A stretch of 64,000 nucleotides of DNA, taken from the NCBI GenBank assembly GCA_965215125.1, contig OZ244052.1, positions 992,001 through 1,056,000 on the forward strand. The letters run 5' to 3'. A program made the position numbers and the translations under genes. The notes beneath the pieces were generated by a model. The model was not told the origin of the DNA. It saw only the letters and a program-made list of their open reading frames with translations, and did no database searches. This document shows, in pieces, positions 3,192 to 27,400 of this stretch. This stretch comes from an uncultured candidatus Porisulfidus sp. Its GTDB lineage: Bacteria > Pseudomonadota > Gammaproteobacteria > Poriferisulfidales > Oxydemutatoraceae. Positions within the stretch are counted from its first letter, which is position 1. Every line of letters begins with the position of its first letter.

Positions 3192-3226
3192 AAAGTTAAA
3201 ATTAACCTGAGAGAGGTCAAAAAGCA

Positions 3227-4309
3227 ATGAAAATAGAGCTCAAAGAAATAACGGTGCGAGAACTCGTTGATGGCTATAGCGACAACGGCGAGGAAGGTGT
3301 AGTTGGTTATTCAGGGAAACTTGATATTCGTCCCCCTTACCAAAGGGAGTTTGTGTACGACGACAAGCAAAGAGATGCTGTCATTGATACCATAACCAAA
3401 GATTTTCCTTTGAATGTGATGTATTGGGCAGTCCGAGACAACGACACCTACGAGATTATTGACGGACAGCAACGCACGGTTTCTGTTGCCCGGTATGTGA
3501 ATGGGGATTTTTCATTCAATAAACTATATTTCCATAACCTGCCGGACGACAAGCAAAACCAAATACTTGATTATAAAATCATGGTCTATTTTTGCAGAGG
3601 AACGGATAGTGAAAGACTCGAATGGTTTAAGACTATTAATATTGCAGGCGCACAGTTAACCGATCAAGAATTGCGCAACGCAGTCTATGCAGGCTCATGG
3701 GTCTCGGACGCTAAAAGATATTTTAGTAAAAGCAATTGTCCTGCGCATGGAATGGGAGGAGACTATCTTAGTGGAAGATCTAATAGGCAAGAATATTTAC
3801 AAGCAGTTATTAAGTGGATAAGCAAAGATAACATTGAAGAGTACATGGCGCAACACCACCACAATCCCGATGCCAAAGAATTGTGGGAGTATTTCCAAAA
3901 AGTGATTGATTGGCTCGAAAGCGTTTTCATAAAGAAACGGCGCGAAATGAAATCAGTAGAATGGGGTGACTTGTATAATGAACACAAGAACATAAATGTT
4001 GACCCAGAAAAAGTTGAAGCAGAAGTGGTGAAACTTCTGTGCGATGATGATGTGACCAAGAAATCAGGGATATATCCGTATATTCTTTCTCGTAAAGAAA
4101 AACATCTTAACATCCGAGCTTTTACTCCCGCAATGAAGCGAACAGCATACGAAAAACAAGCCGGCATTTGTGTCACCTGTAAAAAGCATTTTGAATTTTC
4201 TGATATGCAAGGCGACCATATAACCCCATGGATTGAGGGAGGCAAAACCACTCCCGAGAACTGTCAAATGCTATGCAAAGAATGCAACCGCCGCAAATCC
4301 TCAAACTAA
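3227..4309 (+). CDS. DUF262 (GmrSD/ParB-like) domain plus C-terminal HNH endonuclease; probable restriction partner of the upstream MTase
   Basis: PPYQREFVY, IIDGQQR and FKTIN DUF262 motifs; C-terminal CVTC...GDHITPW.EGG...NCQMLCKECN zinc-HNH. Confidence 0.88.
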   Translation: MKIELKEITVRELVDGYSDNGEEGVVGYSGKLDIRPPYQREFVYDDKQRDAVIDTITKDFPLNVMYWAVRDNDTYEIIDGQQRTVSVARYVNGDFSFNKLYFHNLPDDKQNQILDYKIMVYFCRGTDSERLEWFKTINIAGAQLTDQELRNAVYAGSWVSDAKRYFSKSNCPAHGMGGDYLSGRSNRQEYLQAVIKWISKDNIEEYMAQHHHNPDAKELWEYFQKVIDWLESVFIKKRREMKSVEWGDLYNEHKNINVDPEKVEAEVVKLLCDDDVTKKSGIYPYILSRKEKHLNIRAFTPAMKRTAYEKQAGICVTCKKHFEFSDMQGDHITPWIEGGKTTPENCQMLCKECNRRKSSN

Positions 4310-7400: not shown

Positions 7401-8335
7401 AAGACCTAATTACTCCTCAAATAGGAAAAGATGGAGAATTTTCTTTGCATGCACTGATAGGTGGGCAATCTGGATGGTTGTCACACATGTATGAAGACTG
7501 GTTTTATGAAAATTTAGACAGATTAGTTCCTTATGATGAAGAACAGAGCGATGAGTCTTCAAGTGCAAAATTATGGAAATCCTTTGTTCACGGTTTTGGT
7601 TATACCAGTCGTTATAATCCTGATGTGTACAAAAAATTAAGTAAAAAAGGTGTATTTAAGGCGTATTTAAGGCAAGAAAGAGAAAGAAAAGGAGCGGACT
7701 GGACGGGAAGTGATAGCCCTGAAAATAGAATTATTGACTTTGGTTTAATTGCTTATGTCGAGGGAGATGGTGAAGAATTGATTAATCTGATTCTTGAGGA
7801 CAAACAAGAGAGTGAATGGTCTTACTTATTTAATACTATTAATATCATTGCAGCTCTTTATGAAAAAAAGGAAGAATCGAGACGAGAGTATCGTATCAAG
7901 ATTGGTAAGCTACTCTGGAAAGTATTTGAGACAATAAAACCAACCGACGATAGCTGGAACAAATATTTTGTGAGTTTAGACTCTATGTTGGAATTATTTG
8001 ATGACCCTTCGGATGAATATGTAAGGACTATCGTTGAAATTGTCTCCAAACATGCCGAAGATGGCTGGCGTTTGTATAGAATTATTGATTATCTGCATGC
8101 ATATAAAGATAAGCATTGTAAACAAGTAGGAGAACTATATTGTGTAATGCTTGATAAAACTTCTTTTGCGCCTGTTTATCCAGAAGACAGAATACAAGAA
8201 ATATGCCAAAGCCTTAAAGAGGCTCAAGAAACAGAATTTCTTGAAACGATTTGTCATTTTTATGGGGAACGGACTGTCGATTGTTTCCCTATTAGAGAAA
8301 TTTGTGAATCATTGTTAGACAATGACCAGAACTAA
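4403..8335 (+). CDS. Large SIR2-domain (sirtuin-like NADase) protein, defence-associated-sirtuin-like
   Basis: N-terminal SIR2_2-type motifs FFIGNGLSR, VTTNYD, YLHGS and FMGYSL, followed by about 1000 aa of predicted helical sequence; AT-rich; defence context. Confidence 0.8.
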   Translation: MAKNNFIDNLREKARKKLENVIDDPNVKLTFFIGNGLSRISEILSWKDLADEMLKTLSKYEIIDLNQQSLFSKLPVKTKISIADAYLRNKELLKKTVKDEGKRKELTYHGIIKKNYKLSSNDPYKKLAELAKSDRHTIKSFVTTNYDLMLEKSLEREDLLLDIFPKSSQDTPSMLSDDGKFYPFYNPDEFLEKRSQINRKILLYLHGSIKNESKMKVSISDYLYLYRSLDGKNLMQDLLSKALSRQTIIFMGYSLDELEILELLYRNVLNPSVPHFHLFPYFSHQVEILNQLVEHWRELGITIVPYNVDKNWHKGINEIIDEIKTWIEQRKARPQLSRIGDLDMIDNLIKIVLTEVEKSEKIKQLLKLLQKNERNKIYFFKEIRGSEWFSFLKKYRLFEITDNNIRKSHPWPPIFYLEHLANMVSEKKLSDPDIIKDLVPLITDNFSKLEHIPNSDHIRPTVVEILFSMPHRYLSVDDVIKAFDYLKGFAKSRSISIYLQNAFKKLANKLDNTEHSKNIVCKYIELIFGYQKTKDEMSREEYKLSYFEGYNFERDRLKKLEEQIDQLSEKNEGLIASLITIFDKKLNTLLTEDEELDGSSGHLRPAVKEHYQNRHNDSAFSLFLGILFFLSARQLENKDELSKLDEWATSLFLTYKRLYLALVTEFPKIISVNQSFKVFMSENFNGMKGAKYERYHYLRKFYPKFSDEQKEKIIDAILSIRNGERETTILKQLGWLRALKGLKNAPEIQERQEKLEEKYKKITGREITSWILGHPEFSDSRYFYGVRTVHIISPLSKDKMFAMGPDELIEYLKEQKFDPVEEWKRPRKAGLEENLKQYIRHKYSDATTIVNNLLELDYSYVSSILDGLTELWTERKHIPYELALEKIKDLVGSETFTNQLNDENFNIYSIISSISKFIEAGANKNHFFEHKTYRTSYEILKTLFEKVKPDPNANFRDAYMQALNEPRGKIIETLIYLTWWQHEHEDKKNGNEKEARQNLKDLITPQIGKDGEFSLHALIGGQSGWLSHMYEDWFYENLDRLVPYDEEQSDESSSAKLWKSFVHGFGYTSRYNPDVYKKLSKKGVFKAYLRQERERKGADWTGSDSPENRIIDFGLIAYVEGDGEELINLILEDKQESEWSYLFNTINIIAALYEKKEESRREYRIKIGKLLWKVFETIKPTDDSWNKYFVSLDSMLELFDDPSDEYVRTIVEIVSKHAEDGWRLYRIIDYLHAYKDKHCKQVGELYCVMLDKTSFAPVYPEDRIQEICQSLKEAQETEFLETICHFYGERTVDCFPIREICESLLDNDQN

Positions 8336-8485: not shown

Positions 8486-8896
8486 TCAATTCTTATCTAA
8501 AAACTTGCTTATCTTGCGCCTTAGGCGGTCTATGTTTGATAATTCACATTCCCACACCACGATAGATTTCCAGCCCATGCGCCGTAATTTATCCCTGACC
8601 CGTTTGTCCCGCCGCCTATTACTTTCCAGCTTGGGTTTCCAAAAGCTTCGTCTGGATTTAGGCATTGTTCCTTTCGGGCAGTTCTCGTGTGCGTGCCAGA
8701 AGCATCCGTGAACGAAGATAGCTTTATTGAGTGATTTGAAAACCATGTCGGGACAGCCCGGCAATTCTTTGACATGTAGTCTATAGCGATAACCCATGCG
8801 GTGGGTTAATCTACGGACGGTGATTTCCGGTTTAGTGTCTTGGGTGCGCACTGATGCCATTAATTTACTTCTTTGAATTTTCGTTAGCGTGTCCAT
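8486..8896 (-). CDS. vsr: Very short patch repair endonuclease
   Basis: RSKLMASVRTQDTKPE, LPGCPD, FVHGCFWH and VWEC motifs; adjacent to a C5 MTase; likely start MDTL at 8896 (ORF open to 8932). Confidence 0.93.
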   Translation of the reverse strand: MDTLTKIQRSKLMASVRTQDTKPEITVRRLTHRMGYRYRLHVKELPGCPDMVFKSLNKAIFVHGCFWHAHENCPKGTMPKSRRSFWKPKLESNRRRDKRVRDKLRRMGWKSIVVWECELSNIDRLRRKISKFLDKN

Positions 8897-8967
8897 TGCC
8901 TCTGATGCCGTCATAACGGACGGACTTTTCACAAAACTATAGTGTTCTTACCCGGTAATACTTGATG

Positions 8968-10038
8968 TTAGAGTGGTGTCGACATGTGCTTTATGATTGT
9001 TGTTCCCAAAGCCTTCGCCAGTTTCGGCGGCACTGCGTTTCCGATCATGCGTTGTATGGCGGTACGGTTCGGGATTTCTTCCTGGGGGCAGAATTCGTAA
9101 TTTCTCGGGAAAGATTGTAGGAGCATGGCTTCTCTAAGTGTGATTGACCTGTCCTGTTCGGGATGCCCGAATCGCCCGTTTCCGATACCGGTGCAATGGG
9201 TTGTCATAGTCGGAGACGGCTTATCCCACCACATTCTGCCGTAGTTGCAACAGTAGCTTTGTCCCGAGATTTTCTTATGGCAATCCAATACCAAATTACT
9301 CGGCCAGTCACGTCGTGTGCCGCCGTCATGTTGAGTCATACGCATGCGTTCTAGGTTCAAGGGTGAGAGGTCGGGAGCGCAGTGCATACGATCCGTCGGA
9401 TCTTCTTCGCCTGCCTTCAGAGGTGGCAGCTTTTCTATGGCTCTACGCACCGTTTCCCATTGCTCGTCATTTCGGTATGTTCCGGCGGGAACCGAAATCT
9501 TGCCTAAGCGAGAGGCTAGTAAGACCAGCCGTTTGCGTGATTGCGGGACACCGTATTCGCAACAATTAATAATGTCCCAGTCAACATGATATTTGTTCTT
9601 TGTTAAAGTTGCGAGAAATTGATTAAACACAGCACTCCCTCGGCTCGCTAGTCCCGGAACATTCTCCATAGTAACGAATTCCGGTAATATTCCCTCTATA
9701 TAACGACCGAAATGTTTCAGCAAATCCCAGTCGTCATGAAGTTTTTTTTCTTTGGTGGTAAGTTGTGAAAACGGTTGGCACGGTGCGCAACCGGCTAAGA
9801 GTCTATATTGTCCGGTTGCGAATAGTCCGGCGATATCCGAGTGGTGATTGCGAGTTAAATCCCACTCGTAAAACCGAGATCCCGGATTATTTGTTTCGTA
9901 GGCATAGCGTGCCTGCCTGTCAATATCGATGCCTGCCGCTACTCGGATACCCGCTTTGCGCAACCCGTAGGTTAGACCGCCGGCACCGCAGAAAAGATCT
10001 ACGGCACTGATTCTCTTTGTAATCGTTCTTTTAGACAT
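8968..10038 (-). CDS. DNA (cytosine-5)-methyltransferase
   Basis: Motifs I DLFCGAGG, IV APCQ, VI ENVPG, VIII QSRKR and X IGNAVPP. Confidence 0.95.
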   Translation of the reverse strand: MSKRTITKRISAVDLFCGAGGLTYGLRKAGIRVAAGIDIDRQARYAYETNNPGSRFYEWDLTRNHHSDIAGLFATGQYRLLAGCAPCQPFSQLTTKEKKLHDDWDLLKHFGRYIEGILPEFVTMENVPGLASRGSAVFNQFLATLTKNKYHVDWDIINCCEYGVPQSRKRLVLLASRLGKISVPAGTYRNDEQWETVRRAIEKLPPLKAGEEDPTDRMHCAPDLSPLNLERMRMTQHDGGTRRDWPSNLVLDCHKKISGQSYCCNYGRMWWDKPSPTMTTHCTGIGNGRFGHPEQDRSITLREAMLLQSFPRNYEFCPQEEIPNRTAIQRMIGNAVPPKLAKALGTTIIKHMSTPL

Positions 10039-12019
10039 CGATTGATTTTATAATGGCTTCAATTCTTTGAATTTGCTTGCTTGCCTTTTCTTGAGCCTCT
10101 ATATATTCTTTATATTGTTTCTCGGCTTGAGATATGATTTCTTGATATGTCGTTACTCTAATACCACTTTCTTGAAGAGTTCTTTTACCTGTTTCCATTT
10201 CATCGGGACTCTCCCAACCAATAGGAAATTCTCCTAGAATAATAACACCTTCCACGATGTTATCTTTTCTACCTGAGTCTTTTAATTCTTTGGAAACAGC
10301 ACTCATATATTCGCGGATTTGTTTTGCTAAATCAAAATGGTTGAGTTTTCTTCCGGGTCTCTTAAGTTCTATCACCACATGTTGTTCGGGTGCTTTTTTG
10401 TATTGAATATCAATTCTTAATTCTTTTATCCTCTCTACTTCTTTGCCGGTTTTATCGTCAAGTTCTTTCCAACGTCTTTTTACCCGTTTTTCCAACTTTT
10501 GTTCTGCACAAGCTCGATCCCAGGAGGGGTCTAATAACCACAAATGATCATATATATGTTCTTGAATAATCTTTTCTAGTTGCTTTTCATCTACATACTT
10601 TTGCAACTTATTTATGATTTCTAGACGCCCTTCGGTTATAGTGTAATAACTCATTGCTTCGATTTCATCTTGATTTCTGAACAATTCTGAGAATTGTTCT
10701 AAATTGTCTAAAGAAACATTGCTCAGAGCGTCTAAATTACCCCTCATACGCATTTGTTCTACAGCAGGCACGAAATGGCGAATTATATCTCTTTTCCTAT
10801 CGCTGTCGTCAAGTGTTGCAGTATATTTAAACAATTTGTTGGTTATTTTTTTAGCATCTTGAGAAAGTTCGTCGTACCATTCTTTTATATCTTTATTTTT
10901 GCCAAGAATATCCTCTTTGGCTCTATCAGTTCTTAATTTGTGCCAATCTCCACATATATGTGTAACTAGACTCCTAATGCTTTCTTTAACATTTTGATAA
11001 CGGTCGTCATTCTGATTTAAGTGTTGTCTGCCACTGGTTGCCATATCTTCTTCATCATCCCTGTCAAGATAATTTGCATGGATTTCTCCTATAAGATATT
11101 TTACGGCAACATCTCCCTTACCTAAGCTGTGTAATATATCCTCTTGGGCCAATCTACCGCGCATCATGATAGCGATATTATTAAAATTCTCGCCGCCGTC
11201 ATCCATTAACTGGTTGACTTCGAATACTGAACCAACCCATCCCGACAACCTGCTACCGTTATCTTTAATCAAATTTTTATCAATATGCTTATGCAAAGAA
11301 TTGCAACAGGCTTTCTTAATTTCCGCTGCTTTGTCTTTATCTCCAAAAGTCCAGAGTTTTTGAATTTTAGAGAAATAATTTCTGTCGCTTACGCTCACCT
11401 CGTCATTATTTACAAAAACCTTGAAATGATACTTATCTCCGATTATCGAGAATCTTCTAGATAGACGTTCTCTTAAATACTTATGTAGCCCCCTTGATTT
11501 ATGTCGAAAACTAGTAAGTTCTATTCTAGTGCCACAATCAAAGTTTATTTCACTATTTATTTCACTTTCATCTAGTTCATTCGGATAGTAATCGTTTTTT
11601 CCCTGAATTGCTTTTTTTATCTCGGGATACGACAATTCAAGCCCAATTTTCTTTCCTTCTTTAACCGAATACACCTTAACTTCATTAGCTATTGAGAATA
11701 GTGCCAATCTACCGATTCCTTTTCTCCCCATAACCGGTCGCTCATATTTTGGTGTTTTCTGTTCATTGGCATCCCGCCGCCGATAACCAATGGTGAGATA
11801 TTTTTTTTGGATGTCATCCCTGTTCATACCGTGACCGTCGTCTTTGATTACGATTTTGTCTTCGCTGGTCAGTATATCGACTCGTTCGGCATCGGCATCC
11901 CATGCGTTTGCTACTAATTCTGCGAGAGCAGCCGGAAATCCGCTGTATAGTTTGACACCTAGGTCGTCAATAGTGCCTAGGCTTACTTTCATGTATAAAG
12001 GTTTTTGCTCTTCAGCCAT
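10031..12019 (-). CDS. GHKL/MORC-type ATPase fused to a C-terminal PD-(D/E)xK nuclease; probable restriction endonuclease (HgiDII/BbrUII-like architecture)
   Basis: ELVANAWDADA, DDGHGM, GRKGIGRLA and GT GHKL boxes; C-terminal RIDI...VIELKRP nuclease motif; overlaps the MTase start by 8 nt. Confidence 0.85.
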   Translation of the reverse strand: MAEEQKPLYMKVSLGTIDDLGVKLYSGFPAALAELVANAWDADAERVDILTSEDKIVIKDDGHGMNRDDIQKKYLTIGYRRRDANEQKTPKYERPVMGRKGIGRLALFSIANEVKVYSVKEGKKIGLELSYPEIKKAIQGKNDYYPNELDESEINSEINFDCGTRIELTSFRHKSRGLHKYLRERLSRRFSIIGDKYHFKVFVNNDEVSVSDRNYFSKIQKLWTFGDKDKAAEIKKACCNSLHKHIDKNLIKDNGSRLSGWVGSVFEVNQLMDDGGENFNNIAIMMRGRLAQEDILHSLGKGDVAVKYLIGEIHANYLDRDDEEDMATSGRQHLNQNDDRYQNVKESIRSLVTHICGDWHKLRTDRAKEDILGKNKDIKEWYDELSQDAKKITNKLFKYTATLDDSDRKRDIIRHFVPAVEQMRMRGNLDALSNVSLDNLEQFSELFRNQDEIEAMSYYTITEGRLEIINKLQKYVDEKQLEKIIQEHIYDHLWLLDPSWDRACAEQKLEKRVKRRWKELDDKTGKEVERIKELRIDIQYKKAPEQHVVIELKRPGRKLNHFDLAKQIREYMSAVSKELKDSGRKDNIVEGVIILGEFPIGWESPDEMETGKRTLQESGIRVTTYQEIISQAEKQYKEYIEAQEKASKQIQRIEAIIKSIDV

Positions 12020-13850: not shown

Positions 13851-13928
13851 ATGCACGGTTAATTAGACCCTAACTGGTTTATATTCAGGCGGTGCCTTCG
13901 CATCACCGTCCTAGCAAATCGTACTGAT

Positions 13929-14205
13929 TAAACGATCATGAGCGATGGCATGAAAGAAATTGCCGGCGATGGCGTATCCGGCATCATCGCTCTAATCTTC
14001 GGACAAGCCCAGAGTAGCAATGACCATGCCAGTATCAAATTCATGCATCTTGGGTTTGATAAAAGCGGGAGGGCGTTGAGGTAAGTGAACTTTGGACTCA
14101 TTTCATTTTTAGGCTTATTCATCACAATTCTGCCTCTGTGGCTTCGCTGAGTTTTTCCATCCTGATACCCGGCTAGAATCGGTGAACCGGTAAATAGCGT
14201 TTGGG
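13929..14205 (-). pseudogene. Frameshifted internal fragment paralogous to the GHKL ATPase gene at 16334-18205
   Basis: Aligns by eye with about 17415-17690 at roughly 85-90% nt identity (TGSPILAG.QDGKTQRSHRGRIV...PKFTYLN), with a 1-nt indel near 14075. Confidence 0.85.
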
Positions 14206-14218
14206 GTGGTTGTATCGT

Positions 14219-14306
14219 GGGGTTGTTGAAAAGGTATCCACGAACTGTAGTGCCGGTACATTCCCCTCCTTTGGAGGGGTGGCAGGCGCAGCCTGACGGG
14301 GTGGTC
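14219..14306 (-). repeat. Repeat family A, full copy (about 88 bp; cccctcc-N4-ggagggg hairpin core)
   Basis: Near-identical reverse complement of 21303-21389; partial copies at 18377, 35411, 40982, 59378 and 62664. Confidence 0.85.
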
Positions 14307-14491: not shown

Positions 14492-14629
14492 GGCTTGGTG
14501 GTTATTATAAATTCACGGCGCAAGCGGTTACGGTTGCACGCTGACGATACTTTTTCAACAGCCTCACTGACGCGACCACTCCATGGAAAGGCTTTACATT
14601 TTGTATATATGCTAGAGTTCTACACAATG

Positions 14630-15472
14630 TCACAGCCGCTCGGCTATTTTTTCTATTTCTTTTTGGTTGGATTGTGGGGTTTGCACTTCAATCGCTTTCC
14701 ATACGCTCAGGTATCCGATTTGGTCAATGATTTCTGTCAATTTTTCTCTGTTAATTTCTCTGTTGTTCTGGAGAAACAGCAATAGTCCGCCGAATATGTT
14801 TTCCGAACTTATATAGCTTTTCCCGCTGTGCATTTTTTCAGAAAATCTGACATAGTATTTTTGGTCTAGAATTTCTAATATCAGTTTGGGTTCCATAATG
14901 TTGGACATTTTATCTGCCCACCGCCATCGCCAGTAAGCCTTTCCGAGAGGAAAGTCATTGAATACGATTTTTTTGCCGCTCGGTGCCGGATTACATATAG
15001 AGCGTAAAACCCGTCTAACACAACCGCCTATTTTCCCTGCATCATCGGATGTTAGGGCATCGTCAATCATATAAATACCCGTGCGATTCGGATTATTAGA
15101 ATCCGATGCCAAAAAAAGCGGCTTAATTTGATCATTCTCGATCATCTTGATAATCACATAACCCCAGAAACCACACTTGTATGCGATTTCATCGGGTAGC
15201 CTCTTAAACGCTTGCCAGATTTTTTCCTGAATATCATAAGGCGGGCGAATGAATTCTTGCTCGGTAAATTTGCGCGTAAAGTTGACCAGTTCACCATCGC
15301 TAGCACTATCCGGCAACTTCTTATGCTTCAGGTGTCTTAGAAAACCATCTTTCCCCGATTTACAAGCAGCGAGAAATTCTTTTTGTTCCTCTAGGCTTTT
15401 GTCCTTGCCTTTCAACAATTTTCTACCAAATTGCCCCCAAGCACCTTCATCAAGTCTTTTGTATTCATTCAT
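14630..15472 (-). CDS. Uncharacterised protein, third gene of the GHKL-ATPase operon
   Basis: Open frame of about 280 aa; start MNEYK overlaps the upstream stop; no recognisable catalytic motif. Confidence 0.7.
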   Translation of the reverse strand: MNEYKRLDEGAWGQFGRKLLKGKDKSLEEQKEFLAACKSGKDGFLRHLKHKKLPDSASDGELVNFTRKFTEQEFIRPPYDIQEKIWQAFKRLPDEIAYKCGFWGYVIIKMIENDQIKPLFLASDSNNPNRTGIYMIDDALTSDDAGKIGGCVRRVLRSICNPAPSGKKIVFNDFPLGKAYWRWRWADKMSNIMEPKLILEILDQKYYVRFSEKMHSGKSYISSENIFGGLLLFLQNNREINREKLTEIIDQIGYLSVWKAIEVQTPQSNQKEIEKIAERL

Positions 15473-16334
15473 CACCGGTTCCCCCCTTAAATACACCCAA
15501 GACATAAGGTTTCATTTTGGTGGCCGCTAGGCTCGGGGCAAAGTCCTCGTCCTCCCAATTTTCTCCTGTCTGGCTCTCGAGCATTTGCAGATGGCTCAAT
15601 AGCACGCCGCCTACTCTATCTTTATTTTCTGGATCTAGACTATGCATGTACGCATAAGTGGTACACAATGCCTGAGTAGCGATGGCCCAGCTCATTGACT
15701 CGTCGGTATTGCTTGGTTCTGTCGGGCGGGCTTTTCTCAGTTGATCATAGACATCGCTACCGCATAGCAAAGACACGGGGATCTCACCTTCTCCGGCATA
15801 TTCGCTGACTTCGACTTTCATCTCGCCATCGTCAAGGTCTTCGTCATGAATCAATCTCATTAAATGGTTTATATCACCTTTGGAGAAGGTTAATTTCGAA
15901 CCTATGGCAATGCGGGCGTATTTGGGTATGAAGAGGGACTCGCCCGGCCTCCAAAAGTCTGTCAATCCCGATGAAGCGTTTACCGTAATTTTCACATCTT
16001 CCAGAGCGATGATGCTGGGCATAATTTCCGGAGCATAAGAAAAGTCCATCGGTATGGTTTGCGTGATGGTTATGGCTTCCTCTTGCATGGAGGGGATGCT
16101 TGTGTCATACAAGTGATGTTGCCGCTCGGAACTATCCTTGTAAAGCAACCTAACGGAAAACTGTGCTTTGCCTTGTTCCAGTAAGTTTGAAATGAATGAA
16201 CGACCTTTGAGACTATGTCTTAGGTATAGTTTCCCGTCACCTTGTTCGGCTTTGACTTCGTAGGCGATTGATGCCGGGAAATCACTGCTGTCCTTTCTTA
16301 AGATCGGGAAATCGAGTATTAGATTATCCGGCAT
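15465..16334 (-). CDS. Uncharacterised protein, second gene of the GHKL-ATPase operon
   Basis: 289-aa ORF coupled by TAATG overlap to the ATPase gene; N-terminal FPIL...DF; beta-rich N-half. Confidence 0.75.
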   Translation of the reverse strand: MPDNLILDFPILRKDSSDFPASIAYEVKAEQGDGKLYLRHSLKGRSFISNLLEQGKAQFSVRLLYKDSSERQHHLYDTSIPSMQEEAITITQTIPMDFSYAPEIMPSIIALEDVKITVNASSGLTDFWRPGESLFIPKYARIAIGSKLTFSKGDINHLMRLIHDEDLDDGEMKVEVSEYAGEGEIPVSLLCGSDVYDQLRKARPTEPSNTDESMSWAIATQALCTTYAYMHSLDPENKDRVGGVLLSHLQMLESQTGENWEDEDFAPSLAATKMKPYVLGVFKGGTGDE

Positions 16335-18205
16335 TATTGCGATCCTTTAGATTTTTTGCGTTGTTTCAATCCTAGCATTGGCGATAAAGCTACTTTCATG
16401 TTTCCGATATCATTCGGTTTTTCAATTTCGGCAATCAAGTCGTATTTAGTATCCTTGCTTAACGAACCCAATTTAATTTGTTTTTTACTATCATCGGAAA
16501 CCTTGATTGCCGTGCCGTTCAATTCGGCTGTTATGAAGTTGAGGTAGGTGCGTTGTTCTTTATCACTATCTTCTCCTAAACCTATTGACAAGTACGCATC
16601 GTCTTTGGCATTTTCTTGTTGTGTGGGAGTAATTCTCAACCGCACTTGCCATTTGCCGCCTTTGTCTATATATCTAACGGCAGTCTTTGACTCAAGCAAT
16701 CTGGAAATAACGATAGGCAAAGCGTGTCCGCCCCCCTCTATTGAGACTTGCTCCTTTTTGACTTTGGGTGGTCTAGTCAATTCGGGCTTGGGAGATGCCT
16801 CCTCTCCTTGACCGTCCGATTTTTTGACGCTACCGACATTTTCTTGGGCTTCACTAGGCACGGTGAATAACGGCAAATCAAAAGAATCTCGCTCTATCTT
16901 TTTCAAATAATCTGCCTTCATCTTTTCGCTTAATTCCTTCAGTAGTTTTTTAAGTTCTTTCTCGTCTTTTTTAATCAGTCCACCTTTCTGCAATTTATTA
17001 TGGTACGGACCTTCGGCATTTTTCACCAACCAGAATAATTTCGGGGCATCTTGTTTATCAATATCAATAATCGCGGTAAAAGGTTCAAAATCAGGGTCTT
17101 TTCTTAGCTTGTCTATGTCCACGGATAGCATGGAGTCGTGGCGTGCGACGACCATCCCGTTTCTAACCAGTATGATGGCGGAATTGGTGTTTTTGTCGCT
17201 TTTGATACACACATGGACCTTATCGGAATTGCTAAGTGCAATGATTTTTTGTGAGCCTTGTTCTTGGAGCGTCTGCCACGCTTGAAAGACCATTTTGCCG
17301 GATAGTATATTGTCTCCCATTGCTTTTTTAACCTCTTTTTTCCCGCCGATCAGTTGTTCAACTCGGTTATCGGAGATTTCCTTCGCATCACCGTCCTTAT
17401 GAATGGTAATGCCTAAACGATCGTGCGCGATGGCATGAAAGAAGTTACTAACGATGGCGTATTCGGCATCATCGCTCCAATCTTCGGACAAACCCAGAAT
17501 AGCAACGACCGTGCCGGTATCAAATTCGTGCATCTTGGGTTCGATAAAATCGGGGGGGTTGTTGAGATAAGTGAACTTTGGATTCGTTTCATATTTGGGC
17601 TTCTCCTTCACAATCCTGCCTCTGTGGCTTCGCTGAGTTTTTCCATCTTGATGACCGGCTAGAATCGGTGAACCGGTATATAGCGTTTTTGGAGTGCCGT
17701 TGTCCTTATACTTGGTAGCATAAAGCACATAGCGAAGCGATGAGAGCGAATAGCTCGATAAATTACCGACCCCGAAAGAACCGCCTGATTTTTCATCACC
17801 TTTAATACTAACGCCTCCTGTCAGTATGGCATCCAGCCGATTTTGCTTCATTCCTATGCCGTCGTCGGCAAACAGCAAGACCTTTAGCTTTTCTTTCTGT
17901 AATGCCTCTTCAATGAGTGCCACCCTTTGCTTTGAGTTTTCATTATAACTGCCCTGTTTTTCTGCCGTTTCAATGGCTTTATGCAAGACTTCTTTGTATT
18001 CTTCAATGTGCGGAATTTGACTCGCCGAGATTGTTTCAATGTATATATTTACTTTACATTCATTATTATGCGCTTCGTGGGAAGCATCCAGAGCATTTTG
18101 CAACAACTCTCTAATCGGATTCGTGTAGCCTTCTTTTTTATCCGCCAAGTCACTTCCGGTAAATCCTTCCATTGGACCGACCCTGAAATAAAGTTCCGAT
18201 GACAT
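16334..18205 (-). CDS. GHKL (Hsp90/MORC-like) ATPase domain protein
   Basis: RELLQNALDA, DDGIGM, GGSFGVG and DTGT boxes; Pro/Lys-rich linker and a beta-rich C-terminal domain; AGGAGG RBS. Confidence 0.82.
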   Translation of the reverse strand: MSSELYFRVGPMEGFTGSDLADKKEGYTNPIRELLQNALDASHEAHNNECKVNIYIETISASQIPHIEEYKEVLHKAIETAEKQGSYNENSKQRVALIEEALQKEKLKVLLFADDGIGMKQNRLDAILTGGVSIKGDEKSGGSFGVGNLSSYSLSSLRYVLYATKYKDNGTPKTLYTGSPILAGHQDGKTQRSHRGRIVKEKPKYETNPKFTYLNNPPDFIEPKMHEFDTGTVVAILGLSEDWSDDAEYAIVSNFFHAIAHDRLGITIHKDGDAKEISDNRVEQLIGGKKEVKKAMGDNILSGKMVFQAWQTLQEQGSQKIIALSNSDKVHVCIKSDKNTNSAIILVRNGMVVARHDSMLSVDIDKLRKDPDFEPFTAIIDIDKQDAPKLFWLVKNAEGPYHNKLQKGGLIKKDEKELKKLLKELSEKMKADYLKKIERDSFDLPLFTVPSEAQENVGSVKKSDGQGEEASPKPELTRPPKVKKEQVSIEGGGHALPIVISRLLESKTAVRYIDKGGKWQVRLRITPTQQENAKDDAYLSIGLGEDSDKEQRTYLNFITAELNGTAIKVSDDSKKQIKLGSLSKDTKYDLIAEIEKPNDIGNMKVALSPMLGLKQRKKSKGSQ

Positions 18206-18376
18206 ATCTGCCTCCTAACTAGTCTATAAAATCACAAGGGATATAGCTTTCATCCTCCAGATAAAATGATAGTGTAAATGTGCTAATCGTAGCACCTTGT
18301 AATAATGTAGTCAAAGATAAAGTCAATGTGTCCTGTCGGCACACATCGCGTTTACCCATTAATTTATGAAAACCAC

Positions 18377-18417
18377 CATTCCCCTCCTGTGGAGCGCAAA
18401 GCCTGACGGAGTGATTC
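18377..18417 (-). repeat. Repeat family A, partial copy
   Basis: cattcccctcctgtggag...gcctgacggagtg matches 14259-14305 with an internal deletion. Confidence 0.6.
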
Positions 18418-18660
18418 ACAACCGCCTGCACCTCCGCACATGGTTTCCACAAATCAAATAACGAACGACATTAGTGGTATTGGCATGACACATGCGCAGG
18501 GGAGGCAATCCCCCCCTCCCCCCCTACATGTATAAAATGCATTGTGGTTGATTTTCCCTAAATTTCAAACCATAACAAAAAACAACCTTTATACAAATAC
18601 TTGTCGCCCCCACACACTGTATTTTGATTAAAAACTCTCAGTTCATCTCGCATAGGAATC

Positions 18661-18689
18661 TTGACATAGCACTGATAAATCATAATAAT
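18661..18689 (+). promoter_or_regulatory. Sigma70-type promoter of Panacea module 1
   Basis: TTGACA-N17-AATAAT, about 70 nt before the start at 18760. Confidence 0.5.
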
Positions 18690-18759
18690 TTCATATTGGA
18701 AGTGCTAATTCTGTGGGAATTAGATATATATATCCTAGGATGATAGAGGACAAATCGCA

Positions 18760-19227
18760 GTGACTACGACAGTATTTAATGTTGCAAATCATATATTGAA
18801 ACGCGACAAAAGATTTGATTTATTGCAGCTAATAAAGCTGTGCTACCTATCGTATGGGTGGTATTTAGCCTACCATGATAAAGAATTATTTGAAGAAAAG
18901 ATTGAGGCATGGAAGTATGGACCTGTTATTCCTGAACTCTACTATGCGTTAAAACATTTTAAGGGGCAGCTATTGCCCGATAATTGTCTTGAAAGCCTTA
19001 TAGAAAATAAAGGAATGACACCTGTTTTCTCTGAGGAAGCAGAGAGTTTAATTGGAGAAGTAGTGGAGGTTTATGGAGATTATAGCGGATTAGAATTATC
19101 TGCTTTGACCCATAAAAGAGGAACACCTTGGTATAACACCTACCATGGGAAAAGCAAACGTCCATGGGTTTATATTCCACGCAATGTAATAAAAGATTAC
19201 TATGATGAATTGAAAAATCGTACCTAG
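18760..19227 (+). CDS. Panacea-domain (SocA/DUF4065/GepA) antitoxin
   Basis: VANHIL, QLIKLCY, LF...IEAWKYGPV.PELY and LSALTH..GTPW motifs. Confidence 0.88.
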   Translation: MTTTVFNVANHILKRDKRFDLLQLIKLCYLSYGWYLAYHDKELFEEKIEAWKYGPVIPELYYALKHFKGQLLPDNCLESLIENKGMTPVFSEEAESLIGEVVEVYGDYSGLELSALTHKRGTPWYNTYHGKSKRPWVYIPRNVIKDYYDELKNRT

Positions 19228-19231
19228 TTAA

Positions 19232-19504
19232 ATGGCCAAGCAAACAGGAAAAATAATTAGTCCTACTGAGGAAGAAATTCGCCCTGAAGGAATTGCGACT
19301 GCAGAAGCTCAACTTGTTGCAGGCGGCAACTATGATGAAAAACCGAGTATAGAATTGCAAAAAAAAGAGGAGAATTTTGTAGAAAGACTAAAAAGTTTTA
19401 TCTATAAGGAAGGAACTTATAACGAAATCACTCCTCCAGCTAGCGAGCTTATCGAAAAACGAATTGATGATATGAGAAAAGTTCAAAAATTAATCAGTTC
19501 TTAA
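19232..19504 (+). CDS. Small hypothetical protein in the Panacea module
   Basis: 90-aa ORF starting 4 nt after the antitoxin stop, same strand. Confidence 0.55.
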   Translation: MAKQTGKIISPTEEEIRPEGIATAEAQLVAGGNYDEKPSIELQKKEENFVERLKSFIYKEGTYNEITPPASELIEKRIDDMRKVQKLISS

Positions 19505-21302: not shown

Positions 21303-21389
21303 AACCACCCCGTCAGGCTGCGCCTGCCACCCCTCCGAAGGAGGGGAATGTACCGTCCTACAGTTCGTGGATACTTTTTCAACAGCCCC
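21303..21389 (+). repeat. Repeat family A, full copy
   Basis: accaccccgtcaggctgcgcctgccacccctccgaaggaggggaatgtacc...gatactttttcaacagcccc; inverse of 14219-14306. Confidence 0.85.
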
Positions 21390-21467
21390 ATGTCACCCGA
21401 CGCAATGCAAGGTGGGAAATAATACTTATGGGAATATAATAGATGTTTTACATCTCCCCGCATTTAT

Positions 21468-24400
21468 TTGATACAAGCACAGTTGAATATTTTAGTTTTG
21501 AGAGCTTTAGCAAAAGTTCTTATGATATGGCTTCTAACGGCGGGCATGCAGTCTGTCGTCGCTCAGTCGGAGCAGTCGGATTTCTTTTATGACCGGCAGT
21601 GGCATTTGACCGGTCAGGAAATCATCGGGCGTGTAACTGCGTTTACCATAGATATTAATGTAGAACCGGTATGGGAGAGAACGCTCAAGGATGGACAGAC
21701 GAAAATAAGAGGTCAAGGCACATACATTGCCATAGTAGACGGAGATCTGCCGATTGCACGCCAATCTGCTACAACCCAGACATTGGCTCACCCGGATCTA
21801 ATAGAAAACATATCAACCCAACACAGCGTTGATTATTATCCTTCCGTGATTGATCCTGATGGGCATGCGACCGCCGTAGCGGGTATTGCTGCGGCGCGCG
21901 GTTATAACCGAATAGGCGTTAGAGGGGTGGCACCTTGGGCAAGAGTTTATGGCTTGAATATCTTGGGAATACCCGATGGGGACAGGAGTATTTCGGCAAT
22001 CACTAGAGATATAGCTACCTTAGACGCCATGGTTCGTCATACCACAATAACTGCGGTTTCCAATAACAGTTGGGGAAGCGTGCCTCCTTTTCAACCGTCC
22101 GGTTCTCGTCTTAGGGCATGGGAAATGGCAATAGAAACCGGCATTGAGGACGGATTCCACGGCAAAGGGGTAGTCTACACTTGGGCTGCCGGAAATAACC
22201 GTTGTATTAGCAGAAGAATATCGTCTAACCGCTACGAACAAGTTTGTAACATAGATAATTCAAATTATGACGGCAGGGCAAAGCATTATGCAACCGTTGC
22301 CGTATGTGCGGTGGATTATCGGGGAAGACATGCTACGTATTCGGAACTAGGTGCCAATTTGTGGGTTTGTGCGCCATCACGGGATGCCATTTTCAATCCC
22401 ACATTCGGGATAAACCAATTTACACGAGGGATTACTACAACCTATAGAGGAATCTTTAGAGGGGTCTACGACCATTACTTTTACCGTCCTATTTTCGGCG
22501 GAACCTCTGCGGCAGCTCCGATGGTCAGCGGTGTGGTGGCATTGATGCGGCAGGTCAACCCGAGTCTTAGCTGGCGCGATGTGAAGCTCATTCTGGCTAA
22601 TTCCGCAAGGCAAAACGACTTTACGGACGACGGCTGGGCGCAAGGTGCCGTAAAGTATGGTTCGTCCAGCGATGATGTCGAGGCGCGCTATCATTTTAAC
22701 CACAAATATGGCTTCGGTCTTGTTGACGCAGAAAAAGCGGTTGAAATGGCGGAAGGGTGGATCAATCTTCCCCCCGTAGCACCGTATACGGAAGTAAGCA
22801 CCAGCAATCTGAGCCTTATGTTAAGTGCCGATAATCCGGTTATCAATAGCGATATATCCGTCCAGTCCGATATCAATTTTATAGAATACATGGAGATCCC
22901 TATCAGATTAATACACCCTCTAATTCAAGATTTAAGCGTTGAATTGATCTCGCCGTCAGGTGCTATTTCAAGCCTATTTATACCCTCCACTCATCCCATC
23001 AGTAGTAACAGTTCATACGCAGTCAATACTAGTAGTAGAGGCAGCTCTTGGCGTTTCGGTTCAAGCGTGCATTTAGGCGAAGATCCGTCGGGGATTTGGC
23101 GATTAAGGTTTGAAGACACAAGAGCTACAACCGGCACTTTGATTGCGTGGGGAGTGAGGATACGCGGCTATCGGATAAAAATGGATGCTACTCCTGCTGT
23201 CGGGTTATCGGACGAAAATGTAGCCGAAACCCCGCTGACTTTGTCTTTGATTGGTGCAAGTTGGGAAAAAGATTTGCAGTCTAGCGATTTTAGTTTGAGG
23301 AATGCGCCGGCAGGGTTGCGCATTGCGAGTGTGCGCCGTACTTCTGATACACAAGTTGAACTGAATCTTGCGTTGGATAAAGGCTTTGCGCAGGACTACC
23401 TTTTTCAAGTTGAAGCAACGACCAGTACCGTTCCAAACATTAGAAATCCTCTTATTAGCAACGACATACCAATAGTATGGGAAACGAACGAAGCACCGAT
23501 ACTTGAAATTGTTGCCTCACCGGAGCGTGCGATAGAACTGGGAGGTACCGCAGATGTGGTGGTCTCGGTGGCAGATAATAATTTTGATGTGGGTGATCGC
23601 GTCACATTGACGGCGAAGTCATCGAGCCGAACGATCGTATCGGTGACCACATCGGCGCAAACCGACAATATAACGAATGATGCAAGTATTACCTTTACGC
23701 TAACCGCTGAGCAAAACGGAGAAGCGACGGTTACATTTACTGCAACCGATAACAACGGGTTAAAAGATAGTGAAACCGTGTCGGTGCAGGTCAACGCACC
23801 ACCGACGATTACATCTTTTGACGACACAGTCTCGGTCAAGGAAGGCAGAGAGCAGACTATTGCAGTGTCGGTATCCGATGCCGACACCGACGACAGCTTA
23901 ACTTTATCGCTAACCGCAATGGATGAGAACCAAGATATAGTGGAATTGGTGACCACCAATGTGATAGTAATGACCAACGGCAGTGTTGCAAGAGACGCAC
24001 AAGCTCTAAAGATTAAAGGGTTGAAAGCCGGTGTGGCAACACTCAATATCACCGTGAGCGATGCACACACCGAGTCGGTTGCGGCTTCGGTCTCGGTGAC
24101 GGTGGAGCGGAACACGGCTCCGACGATTATTGGTATTCCCGAACAATCCATCAGATTGTTGGAAGGAACAGAAACTACGCTGAATGTTGTGATAAACGAT
24201 GCCGACGACGATAGCCTTAGTGTAAGAATTGATACCGGCAATAGCCTGATTGCAACCGCAACGATTATTACGACCGATGGTGCTACCCGCACACTTGAAG
24301 TTAGCGGTGTCGGTGCCGGTAGTGCGACGATTATGGTGACGGTAAATGACGGCAGAGGTCTATCAAATTCAAGGATTTTGGAGGAATTTGAAGTGCGAGT

Positions 24401-27400
24401 AGAAGCGAATACGAAACCGACGATTATGATTACACCGCCCACCGTTCCAACGATGCAGTTGAATGACATGACCGATGTCGTTGTCTCGGTGGCGGATGAT
24501 AATTTTGATGTGGGTGATAGTGTCACATTGGAAGCGATGTCGTCGAGCCGAACGATCGTATCGGTGACGACATCTGTAGAAACCGACGATATAACGACCA
24601 ATACGAGTATCACCTTCACACTAACTGCCGAGCAAAGCGGAGAAGCGGTGATTACATTCACCGCAACCGACAGCAACGAGTCAACAAACAGTAAAACCGT
24701 GTCGGTGCGAGTCAATGCCTCTCCGACGATTACATCTTTTGACAATACAGTCTCGGTCAAGGAGGGCAGAGAGCAGACTATTGCAGTGTCGGTATCCGAT
24801 GCCGATACCGACGACAGCTTAACTTTATCGCTAACCGCAATGAATGAGAACCAAGATGTAGTGGAATTGGTGACCACCAGTGTGATGGTAATGACCAACG
24901 GCAGTGTTACAAGAGACGCACAAACTCTAAAGATTAAAGGATTGAAAGCCGGTGTGGCAACACTCAATATCACCGTGAGCGATGCACACACCGAGTCGGT
25001 TTCGGCTTCGGTCTCGGTGACGGTGGAGCGGAACACGGCTCCGACGATTATTGGTATTCCCGAACAACCCATCAAATTGTTGGAAGGAACAGAAACTACG
25101 CTGAATGTTGTGATAAACGATGCCGATGTAGACGATAGCCTTAGTGTAAGAATTGATACCGGCAATAGCCTGATTGCAACCGCAACGATTATTGCGACCG
25201 ATGGTGCTACCCGCACACTTGAAGTTAGCGGTGTCGGTGCCGGTAGTGCGACGATTATGGTGACGGTAAATGACGGCAGAGGTCTATCGAATTCAAGGAT
25301 TTCGGAGGAATTTGAAGTGCGAGTAGAAGCGAATACGAAACCGACAATTATGATTACACCGCCCACCGTTCCAACGATGCAGTTGAATGACATGACCGAT
25401 GTCGTTGTCTCGGTGGCGGATGATAATTTCGATTTGGGTGATAGTGTCACATTGGAAGCGATGTCGTCGAGCCGAACGATCATATCGGTGGCGACATCTG
25501 CAGAAACCGACGATATAACCACTAATACGAGTATCACCTTTACGCTAACCGCCGAGCAGAGCGGAGAAGCGGTGATTACATTCACCGCAACCGACAGCAA
25601 CGAGTCAACAAACAGTAAAACCGTGTCGGTGCGTGTCAACACGCCTCCGACGATTACATCTTTTGACAATACAGTCTCGGTCAAGGAAGGCAGAGAGCAG
25701 GCTATTGCAGTGTCGGTATCCGATGCCGATACCGACGACAGCTTAACTTTATCGCTAACCGCAATGGATGAGAACCAAGATGTAGTGGAATTGGTGACCA
25801 CCAGTGTGATGGTAATGACCAACGGCAGTGTTACAAGAGACGCACAAACTCTAAAGATTAAAGGGTTGAAAGCCGGTGTGGCAACACTCAATATCACCGT
25901 GAGCGATGAACACACCGAGTCGGTTTCGGCTTCGGTCTCGGTGACGGTGGAGCGGAACACGGCTCCGACGATTATTGGTATTCCCGAACAACCCATCAAA
26001 TTGTTGGAAGGAACAGAAACTACGCTGAATGTAACAATAAACGATGCCGACGACGACGATAGCCCTAGTGTAAGCATTGATACCGGCAATAGCCTGATTG
26101 CAACCGCAACGATTATTGCGACCGATGGTGCTACCCGCACACTTGAAGTTAGCGGTGTCGGTGCCGGTAGTGCGACGATTATGGTGACGGTAAATGACGG
26201 CAGAGGTCTATCAAATTCAAGGATTTCGGAGGAATTTGAAGTGCGAGTAGAAGCGAATACGAAACCGACAATTATGATTACACCGTCATTGGATCAAACA
26301 CTATCCCTGAATAGTACGGCTCATATTGTTGTCTCGGTGGCGGATGATAATTTCGATTTGGATGATATCGTCACATTGGAAGCGATGTCGTCGAGCCGAA
26401 CGATCGTATCGGTGACGACATCTGCGGAAACCGACGATATAACGACCAATACGAGTATCACCTTTACACTAACCGCCGAGCAGAGCGGAGAAGCGGTGAT
26501 TACATTCACCGCAACCGACAGCAACGAGTCAACAAACAGTAAAACCGTGTCGGTGCGAGTCAATGCCTCTCCGACGATTACATCTTTTGACAATACAGTC
26601 TCGGTCAAGGAGGGCAGAGAGCAGACTATTGCAGTGTTGGTATCCGATGCCGACACCGACGACAGCTTAACTTTATCGTTAACCGCAATAGATGAGAACC
26701 AAGATGTAGTGGAATTGGTGACCACCAGTGTGATGGTAATGACCAACGGCAGTGTTACAAGAGACGCACAAACTCTAAAGATTAAAGGGTTGAAAGCCGG
26801 TGTGGCAACACTCAATATCACCGTGAGCGATGAACACACCGAGTCGGTTTCGGCTTCGGTCTTGGTGACGGTGGAGCGGAACACGGCTCCGACGATTATT
26901 GGTATTCCCGAACAACCCATCAAATTGTTGGAAGGAACAGAAACTACGCTGAATGTAACAATAAACGATGCCGACGACGACGATAGCCTTAGTGTAAGCA
27001 TTGATACCGGCAATAGCCTGATTGCAACCGCAACGATTATTGCGACCGATGGTGCTACCCGCACACTTGAAGTTAGCGGTGTCGGTGCCGGTAGTGCGAC
27101 GATTATGGTGACGGTAAATGACGGCAGAGGTCTATCGAATTCAAGGATTTCGGAGGAATTTGAAGTGCGAGTAGAAGCGAATACGAAACCGACAATTATG
27201 ATTACACCGTCATTGGATCAAACACTATCCCTGAATAGTACGGCTCATATTGTTGTCTCGGTGGCGGATGATAATTTCAATTTGGGTGATAGTGTCACAT
27301 TGGAAGCGATGTCGTCGAGCCGAACGATTGTATCGGTGACGACATCTGCAGAAACCGACGATATAACGACCAATACGAGTATCACCTTCACACTAACCGC

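Follow-up and report, generated by a model that had tools for sequence, protein, structure and literature searches.

A GHKL ATPase operon of an uncultured candidatus Porisulfidus: a sister of the PADLOC candidate PDC-M33 whose PP-loop gene has been lost

We analyzed a stretch of 64,000 nucleotides (the window) of contig OZ244052.1, assembly GCA_965215125.1, from an uncultured candidatus Porisulfidus sp., and more specifically an operon of three genes, A, B, and C, at positions 14630 to 18205. The open reading frame (ORF) analysis of the window places all three on the minus strand. Gene A (16334..18205) encodes a GHKL ATPase of 623 aa, recognized by its ORF and its four GHKL boxes, gene B (15465..16334) a protein of 289 aa, recognized by its ORF and its homology to PDC-M33B-like proteins of the PADLOC collection, and gene C (14630..15472) an all-helical protein of 280 aa belonging to no known family. 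The A/B junction reads TAATG, a 1-nt overlap in which the stop codon of A shares a base with the start codon of B. The longest ORF for C covers 14630-15505 (291 aa, minus strand). The start of C in 23 homologues corresponds to the second ATG of the window, 15472, from which C overlaps B by 8 nt (ATGAATGA); these homologues make it unlikely that the longer ORF from 15505 is in use. The overlapping junctions are kept among homologous loci. A preliminary description of this DNA, made from its letters alone, had called a translationally coupled three-gene operon with a GHKL ATPase and a third protein of ~280 aa, and the ORFs, both overlaps, and the homologue-backed start confirm it. The arrangement is not an assembly artefact, because it recurs in contigs of four public runs (two studies), which cover 14583-17645 and 17618-19300 with 0-3 differences per long piece; no RNA run was listed among the sequencing runs containing this DNA. 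Our confidence in the anatomy and homology of the operon is high.

GHKL ATPases are recognized by motifs I-IV of the Bergerat fold: an N box (ExxxNxxD), a G1 box (DxGxG), a G2 box (GxxGxG), and a motif IV with Thr/Gly. All four occur in A, as RELLQNALDA (residues 32-41), DDGIGM (114-119), GGSFGVG (141-147), and DTGT (229-232), just as the preliminary description had read them in this 623-aa protein, and E33, N37, D40, D114, G116, G118, G142, G145, G147, and G231 are invariant in all 32 aligned homologues. Behind the N-terminal Bergerat fold, a conserved middle part extends to about residue 440, and a linker rich in K, E, and P then leads to a C-terminal domain of ~125 aa; the conserved region up to residue 440 is common to PDC-M33A. 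MORC and paraMORC proteins carry an S5-fold transducer domain behind the ATPase domain. From its sequence, A appears to be a paraMORC-like GHKL ATPase, in which an S5 domain and the C-terminal domain are putative. It scores 21.4 bits against Pfam HATPase_c_3, below the cut-off of 25, and stays under the curated cut-offs of Pfam and NCBIfam in general. Among 7997 candidates scored, 197 are homologues of A at E ≤ 0.001, all of them nameless or annotated 'hypothetical'. The A profile gave nothing significant against PDB sequences, and the ESM Atlas contained no cluster at or above 0.9 for the C-terminal domain.

Neither B nor C matches any Pfam, NCBIfam, or PADLOC model, even at E values up to 10. 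The structural model of B (pLDDT 83, pTM 0.59) shows a front half resembling an FN3/immunoglobulin (Ig) β-sandwich and a helical C-terminal part, for which the fold search (Foldseek against the PDB, VIA-align wide) returned only generic FN3/Ig sandwiches, with a best Z of 8.1. The model of C (pLDDT 88, pTM 0.87) is entirely helical, and the same search gave no match, the best Z of 5.5 being confined to the last 80 residues. For C, the ESM Atlas again showed no cluster at or above 0.9, and the profile search found close family members only, with a Pfam family on none of the 120 matches listed.

The complex of B with C was predicted with scores of 0.70, 0.70, and 0.71 in three runs, vs 0.00 for the best of three controls; the score mark for this prediction is reached by 116 of 157 solved complexes and by 2 of 215 mismatched pairs. 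At least 69% of the contacts agree between runs, partner pLDDT is at least 84, and the predicted interface holds the invariant residues R71, P137, and R141 of B and M214, N225, W258, A260, and E262 of C. These models predict that B and C form a heterodimer. The stoichiometric three-subunit complex envisaged from the letters alone is thereby supported in its B-C contact; the natural unit of the family has four or more genes.

This larger unit was seen in 28 family loci, taken from one genome per species. The loci come from at least four phyla; going by record titles, the hosts are mostly metagenome-assembled genomes (MAGs) of sponge and mussel symbionts and of other marine bacteria, belonging to the Gammaproteobacteria, Alphaproteobacteria, Nitrospirota, and Nitrospinota. 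Of the 28 loci, 24 keep the order A-B-C, and the four that do not are two contig ends and two fragments; the co-occurrence of genes 2 and 3 with the ATPase, which the preliminary description had proposed to check, is borne out. When the flanking ORFs were clustered, a fourth conserved gene emerged, which ends ~12 nt before A and encodes a PP-loop protein of ~420 aa. By tblastn, 26 of the 28 loci carry it upstream of A, 22 of them with one full-length match, and only loci L001 and L002 lack it. Its product is the best conserved of the cassette (mean column identity 61%), with an FSGGRSS PP-loop and invariant Cys residues at 132, 318, 321, 413, and 415. Among PADLOC models, SspD matches 20 of 20 of these proteins (best E 1.5e-9), BrxP 19 of 20, and DndC 9 of 20; the profile of the family gave nothing significant against PDB sequences. 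No cytosine-C5 methyltransferase (C5-MTase) gene was found in the 28 family loci. The three-gene unit of the preliminary description thus has to be enlarged to four or more genes in the relatives. The cassette is inserted at differing sites in differing genomes and phyla, and we propose that the A-B-C core belongs to a horizontally mobile cassette.

Some loci show individual features. One gene is broken in three of the 24 A-B-C loci, by an insertion sequence (IS) in A (L017) or by a split into two frames of B (L020) or C (L011), and further decaying cassettes have an IS in the PP-loop gene (L008), a PP-loop gene in two frames (L011), or shortened copies (L027, L028). In L023 (5527-16143), the four-gene cassette and an N6/N4 DNA methylase gene behind it are set between NADH dehydrogenase subunit genes, with chains 6 and 4L on one side and chain 5 on the other. 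A cysteine desulfurase gene and a radical-SAM gene directly follow C in L009 (11667-14841), and in L012 (11652-12884) C is followed by a GmrSD_N+HNH gene similar to the restriction endonuclease (REase) gene at 3227-4309 of the window (25% identity, E 1e-20). Finally, L064 (8787-11153), from the same genome as L002, carries a distant PP-loop homologue (profile E 1.6e-90) 37 nt downstream of a C5-MTase gene whose product is 85% identical to that of the window, with none of A, B, and C nearby; such PP-loop proteins may therefore also pair with Dcm.

In the window, the PP-loop gene is reduced to a relic of its last 14 codons and stop (18219..18263, minus strand), identified by tblastn, translation, and DNA alignment with L003 and L004. 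The relic adjoins A, 13 nt upstream of its ATG, and shows 78.6% identity (tblastn) to residues 404-417 of the L003 protein, with the sequence YLEDESYIPCDFID vs YLEDESYIPCNCTD in L003. The conserved C-terminal CNCTD became CDFID, which spoils the cysteine motif. The DNA upstream of the relic is unrelated to the PP-loop gene, is common to L002, and leads into a Panacea-type segment. L003 has the order AAA ATPase, 191-aa ORF, PP-loop gene, A-B-C, and fragment of A, and its synteny with the window places the Panacea-type segment at the expected site of the PP-loop gene. In the window genome, a single contig of 99% completeness, the PP-loop profile found no homologue. The PP-loop gene of the window copy has been destroyed and the genome has no other copy, and the ORFs of A, B, and C are all intact despite this loss. 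The segment replacing the PP-loop gene also contains a promoter-like site with a TG element (TTGACT-17-TACGAT, 18286..18314, minus strand) in DNA common to L002; it is only a lead, given that the region shows no excess of promoter-like sites (11 vs a shuffle mean of 9.9). Terminator-like sites show no excess either (4 vs 5.0 in shuffles).

The preliminary description could not match the operon to any named system. We find that A matches the PADLOC model PDC-M33A at E 5.3e-27 (A residues 31-441, profile positions 35-413 of 627) and that B is homologous to PDC-M33B-like proteins. PDC-M33 was chosen by 'guilt-by-embedding', as it lies inside BREX, DISARM, or type I restriction-modification (RM) loci (bioRxiv 10.1101/2024.01.29.577857). 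It comprises three genes, with models of 627, 289, and ~250 positions. A true PDC-M33A member, taken for comparison, reaches E 2.2e-91 over profile positions 24-621, and the A family aligns with a true PDC-M33A by hhalign with a probability of 99.4 and E 7e-22. The PDC-M33B model gives no match to B at E up to 10, nor any match in the genome at E up to 1. The B profile found 230 cluster representatives at E ≤ 0.001, 33 of them at E ≤ 1e-30. B is a homologue of PDC-M33B, because 28 of 34 distant B representatives sampled are matched by PDC-M33B and because the B group and the distant PDC-M33B-like group align by hhalign at E 1.7e-48 over 272 columns. The comparison of C with PDC-M33C (DUF6339) was negative by HMM, hmmsearch, and hhalign. 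Of the two partner proteins that could not be assigned from the letters alone, B thus has a relative, and C still has no known family or fold match.

PDC-M33 and the window operon have in common three co-oriented genes for proteins of ~620, 285, and 250-280 aa, in the order A-B-C, with homologous A and B. They differ in that the C of PDC-M33 is of the DUF6339 type and its linked modifying enzyme, or writer, is a Dcm methylase, whereas the window family has another C and a PP-loop enzyme. The window operon is therefore a sister of PDC-M33 and not a member, since two of the three PADLOC models give no match, its C belongs to a different kind, and it goes with a different writer. No publication was found on 'PDC-M33' or 'DUF6339'; the supplements of the PADLOC preprint may describe PDC-M33.

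Of 401 genomes sampled from the phylum, 8 contain a PDC-M33A match, as do 18 of 400 sampled from the class. We fetched the superfamily loci and typed them with local profiles; the counts per branch leave out L062 (a weak A match at 5.4e-4, nothing else found), G698, G503:C511, and G637, as well as L045, L056, L057, L058, and L063, which come from the same genomes as L013, L004, L015, L021, and L022. Two branches emerge. Branch I contains the window family and an intermediate clade (L050, L052-L055), with the window-type C (E 1e-20 to 1e-47) and the PP-loop gene. The intermediate clade, for which counts are given over L050, L052, L053, and L055, has the same four genes, but its PP-loop gene lies downstream of C (L050, L055), upstream of A (L053), or upstream with one gene between (L052); L054 is too short to place it. 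No C5-MTase gene was found in the loci of this clade. All four of these loci encode a DUF262-type protein of ~530-612 aa (profile against 7p9k, E 1.5e-12) with a DGQQR box and a C-terminal HH..N..N box in its consensus. In two of the four, an IscS-like cysteine desulfurase gene follows the PP-loop gene, and its product matches 5usr (1.4e-110), DndA 3vax (4.6e-68), and SspA 6m4j (3e-59). Branch II, i.e., PDC-M33 proper and its kin, has a C5-MTase homologue within the stretch fetched in 13 of 13 loci, Vsr in 7, and a PP-loop gene in none, and its C is of the DUF6339 type in all 11 loci that could be typed. Loci L042-L044 of this branch add Z1 (MzaC-like) and DUF4420 (MzaD-like) genes. A and B are thus common to both branches, whereas the type of C changes together with the kind of writer.

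The operon of the window is surrounded by genes of an EcoRI-like methyltransferase (MTase) with a GmrSD_N/HNH REase, Dsr1 (SIR2), Vsr with a C5-MTase and a GHKL-type REase, PDDEXK_2 (Rpn-like), and Panacea proteins. The EcoRI-like adenine methylase and the GmrSD_N+HNH nuclease occupy 2202-4309 on the plus strand (PADLOC REase_II, E 4e-139), and the Dsr1-type SIR2 protein of 1310 aa occupies 4403-8335, also on the plus strand (PADLOC, E 1e-89); these genes lie in a stretch of low GC content (31-40%). The cassette of Vsr, C5-MTase, and a 662-aa HATPase_c_3 protein lies at 8486-12019 on the minus strand, the 662-aa protein matching a PADLOC type II REase at E 3e-80. A shows no similarity to this GHKL protein (10031-12019) beyond the G1/G2 boxes (best E 0.6). 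The preliminary description had singled out this co-oriented cassette, and we considered its C5-MTase as the writer of the triad. It is unlikely as partner, because the cassette has its own GHKL-type REase and because the window-type C goes with PP-loop genes and is never with Dcm in the loci examined; for the branch with the window-type C, it is not the expected partner.

A degraded fragment of a second copy of gene A (13893..14216, minus strand), corresponding to residues 168-276 and interrupted by five stops, was found from direct repeats and a genome search; the repeats, 13895-14202 and 17380-17688, are 85-88% identical. This relic lies directly downstream of C, and the same relic is present in L003 (12131-12344), which hints at an old tandem copy or at a cassette exchange. 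Next to it, at 14218-14305, is a ~90-nt dispersed repeat resembling repetitive extragenic palindromes (REP) or miniature inverted-repeat transposable elements (MITE), which is not part of the system. Copies of it at 14219 and 18377 had been said to bracket the operon. We reject this bracket as a boundary, the repeat being dispersed genome-wide (55 matches in 2.2 Mb) and the sequence near 18377 only a degenerate piece. The clean inverted partner of 14218-14305 is 21304-21390 (arms 94-98% complementary), and the two arms enclose 7 kb with the operon, a Panacea pair, and small ORFs. Panacea-domain (SocA-like antitoxin) genes are found on the plus strand at 18760-19227 and 30377-30838, each followed by a small ORF without family. 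The first pair sits at the place of the lost PP-loop gene, and L002 has a homologue of 63% identity upstream of A. Further on, a plus-strand gene (21468-28754) encodes a 2428-aa subtilase with repeated Big_9/PKD-like modules, whose counterpart in L003 (13276-16536) has 1086 aa; the repeat region has therefore expanded or contracted.

What could such an operon do? In our judgement, the chances are about even that the triad serves a modification-based self/non-self system as its ATP-driven core for scanning and recognizing DNA; in the window, this core has no writer. By analogy with DndD-DndE and SspC-SspB, an ATP-gated dimer of the GHKL protein together with B-C would load on DNA, scan it, and recognize sites or their modification state, and the core would then pass self DNA to the writer. 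C would be the subunit matched to this writer, the window-type C going with a DndC/SspD/BrxP-like PP-loop iron-sulfur (Fe-S) enzyme and the DUF6339-type C with Dcm; in the deeper relatives, the window-type C also goes with the IscS-like cysteine desulfurase and a DUF262-HNH nuclease. We infer that the writer-less core of the window would keep a writer-independent activity, either DNA exclusion or signalling to nucleases encoded elsewhere, because the window copy is intact and the writer-less relatives are under purifying selection. The preliminary description had suggested an anti-phage or anti-plasmid complex possibly sensing modified DNA, and the comparative context supports the link to DNA modification.

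A more specific version seems possible and well short of probable. The branch would then add an undescribed architecture to those of sulfur-based DNA modification, acting by phosphorothioation of the backbone or by thiolation of bases, in which the GHKL protein and the B-C heterodimer replace the P-loop ATPase/recognition pair of Dnd, Ssp, and BREX type 4 and in which the core alone still acts on foreign DNA without a nuclease of its own.

Selection on the triad after the loss of the writer bears on a different view, that the operon is a functionless remnant. The triad would then only have delivered the PP-loop enzyme to DNA, as SspB/SspC do for SspD, and would now be inert and not yet decayed. 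This seems improbable to us. Between L001 and L002, both writer-less, the ratio of nonsynonymous to synonymous substitution rates (dN/dS) is 0.03 for A, 0.015 for B, and 0.22 for C, a range that speaks against a remnant, as do the three intact ORFs, identical in the contigs of the four runs, and the triads of the sister branch, which adjoin Dcm enzymes that need no delivery machine. Between the window and L001, dN/dS is 0.17 (A), 0.15 (B), and 0.28 (C), and between the writer-bearing L003 and L004, it is 0.21, 0.20, and 0.30, respectively. In favor of a remnant, all known phosphorothioate (PT) systems need an NTPase beside the 3'-phosphoadenosine-5'-phosphosulfate (PAPS) reductase protein (PMC12914056), the writer is truncated in the window, a degraded gene A fragment and REP-like repeats flank the operon, and other copies of the cassette are breaking down (L017, L020, L011, L008).

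A second question is whether the triad needs a writer at all in order to restrict. As a stand-alone restriction or abortive-infection complex, the view nearest to that of the preliminary description, it would itself be the effector that attacks or blocks unmarked DNA, and the PP-loop or Dcm enzyme would only protect the host, in the manner of classical RM systems. We hold this to be unlikely. The preliminary description had seen no nuclease motif in A, and indeed Pfam, NCBIfam, and PADLOC identify no nuclease family in A, B, or C, nor was any other effector domain found in the three. Some relatives add nucleases, DUF4420 with the Z1 ATPase or DUF262-HNH, which suggests that the triad itself has none. 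Moreover, losing a protective writer should kill the host if the triad attacks unmarked self DNA, and the window genome is without writer. A stand-alone complex would nevertheless fit the fact that the triad is the only part common to all branches, that it is under purifying selection without writer, that a defence island surrounds it in the window, and that PADLOC defines PDC-M33 by A, B, and C alone; DndFGH has likewise been argued to be a stand-alone module decoupled from the modification genes (PMC10853773).

The genomic neighborhoods raise the question of whether defence is involved. The operon had been described as lying in a defence island, and this is correct for the window, where the neighbors are as described. 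Outside it, the family is mostly not in defence islands: the six nearest neighbors of the 24 family loci are for the most part housekeeping genes, with clear defence or modification genes in ~4 loci. The system might instead be an epigenetic, regulatory, or repair module, e.g., a MutL-like helper of very-short-patch repair or an RNA thiolation complex, spreading as a selfish or niche-adaptive unit, an explanation of rather low probability. It would agree with these housekeeping surroundings, with hosts found among symbionts of sponges and mussels and other MAGs of marine origin, with Vsr in 7 of 13 loci of the sister branch, with the functional link of MutL to Vsr cited in PMC2292703, and with the tRNA thiolases among the PP-loop Fe-S enzymes (PMC12914056). 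It agrees less well with a cassette at differing sites across genomes and phyla, as for RM-like mobile units, with the links of relatives to DUF262-HNH, DUF4420, and Z1 proteins, with the choice of PDC-M33 for its embedding in BREX, DISARM, and type I RM loci, and with the defence island around the window copy.

Returning to the modification-linked scanning core, the housekeeping surroundings are one of several points that weigh against it. No relatives of A were found in the plasmid, phage, and IMG/VR contig collections searched. Library scans of A, B, and C, together with fold searches of B and C, recognized no nuclease or DNA-binding domain. The matches of the PP-loop proteins to SspD, BrxP, and DndC are weak and local (36-66 residues, all below curated cut-offs), and the substrate of this enzyme could be RNA or a base and not the DNA backbone. 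PDC-M33 is one of 145 PADLOC candidates and is itself predicted, not tested (10.1101/2024.01.29.577857). The split in C type and writer type may go back to a single ancient event, and the pairing of C with the writer therefore counts as one observation. Finally, in the trees of A, B, and C, the window, L003, and the L001-L002 pair form an unresolved trichotomy, and the one branch that is certain to follow a loss is the short one of L001-L002 (dS ~0.1).

If the modification-linked reading is true, the family would offer a compact cassette of four to six genes for testing how cores read marks, and the window with the two related loci, as natural writer-less forms, would allow a direct test of the core acting alone. 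The family also makes the PADLOC candidate PDC-M33 a single arm of a broader, modification-linked superfamily, which is present in 18 of the 400 genomes sampled from the class. Newly recognized here are the loss of the PP-loop gene, a natural unit that comprises four to six genes, and a type of C that pairs with the type of writer.

Among known systems, one group of interest contains the MORC and paraMORC GHKL proteins in RM operons with Dcm and Vsr, which have been proposed to loop DNA (PMC2292703; Iyer, Abhiman, Aravind 2008). The likeness lies in a GHKL ATPase with intact motifs, in a proposed role in ATP-driven DNA manipulation or looping, and in the links to Dcm, Vsr, Z1, and DUF4420 in the sister branch, the last two shared with Mza. 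In Mza (MzaA-E), the genes for Z1 (MzaC), DUF4420 (MzaD), and AIPR (MzaE) stand beside the GHKL gene. None of these three is present in the window operon, which also differs from both groups in having no helicase and no nuclease. A fails the Pfam HATPase_c_3 cut-off, and partners such as B and C are not described in the accessible part of PMC2292703.

The Dnd, Ssp, and BREX type 4 systems are closer in the way they would work. In the model of the first two, an ATPase scans DNA together with its recognition partner (DndD-DndE, SspC-SspB), and the pair triggers DndA/DndC; cores of this kind also occur coupled to cytosine methylases, and modification and restriction modules are often decoupled (PMC10853773). 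In BREX type 4, the PAPS-reductase protein BrxP takes the place of the PglX methylase and makes phosphorothioate, and in all three systems a P-loop NTPase partner is required (PMC12914056). No PADLOC match to such an NTPase (DndD, SspC, BrxC) was found for A, B, or C, and of the PAPS-reductase-type PP-loop enzyme, the window holds only the 14-codon relic. The available text of PMC10853773 does not mention GHKL, MutL, or Hsp90, and among the best matches listed, no publication on defence brings GHKL, MORC, or HATPase proteins together with PAPS reductase or DndC.

SspE combines DUF262 with HNH. The relatives of the window operon resemble Ssp (SspABCD with SspE) in encoding an SspD-like PP-loop protein, an IscS/SspA-like desulfurase (two of four intermediate loci), and a DUF262-type protein whose HNH-like C-terminal motif recalls SspE (four of four), as well as in an ATPase and recognition component that accompanies the writer. 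The DUF262 domain of SspE is also mentioned in PMC12914056. They differ from Ssp in that SspB and SspC homologues are missing, the ATPase is GHKL and not AAA+, and the SspD match is local and weak; in addition, none of the Ssp-like genes is in the window. With Dnd, they have in common an ATPase and a small recognition partner as a core going with PP-loop and desulfurase genes, the same kind of core with cytosine methylases in other lineages, and modification genes that are often decoupled, whereas the ATPase is GHKL and not ABC/SMC-like, B and C are unrelated to DndE, and DndB, DndD, and DndE were not detected. BREX type 4 is similar in its constant multi-protein core without evident nuclease and in a writer that is either a methyltransferase or a PAPS-reductase-type enzyme, BrxP being matched weakly by 19 of 20 PP-loop proteins of the family; it differs in its core proteins, which are unrelated, and no BrxC, BrxZ, or BrxL was found.

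By analogy, the core would thus resemble those of Dnd, Ssp, and BREX type 4 most in its working, with none of their core proteins in common. If this is true, GHKL/MORC-type ATPases would join the ABC (Dnd), AAA+ (Ssp), and BrxC (BREX) proteins as a further motor linking the scanning of DNA to an exchangeable writer, which may be a PP-loop sulfur enzyme or a Dcm methylase.

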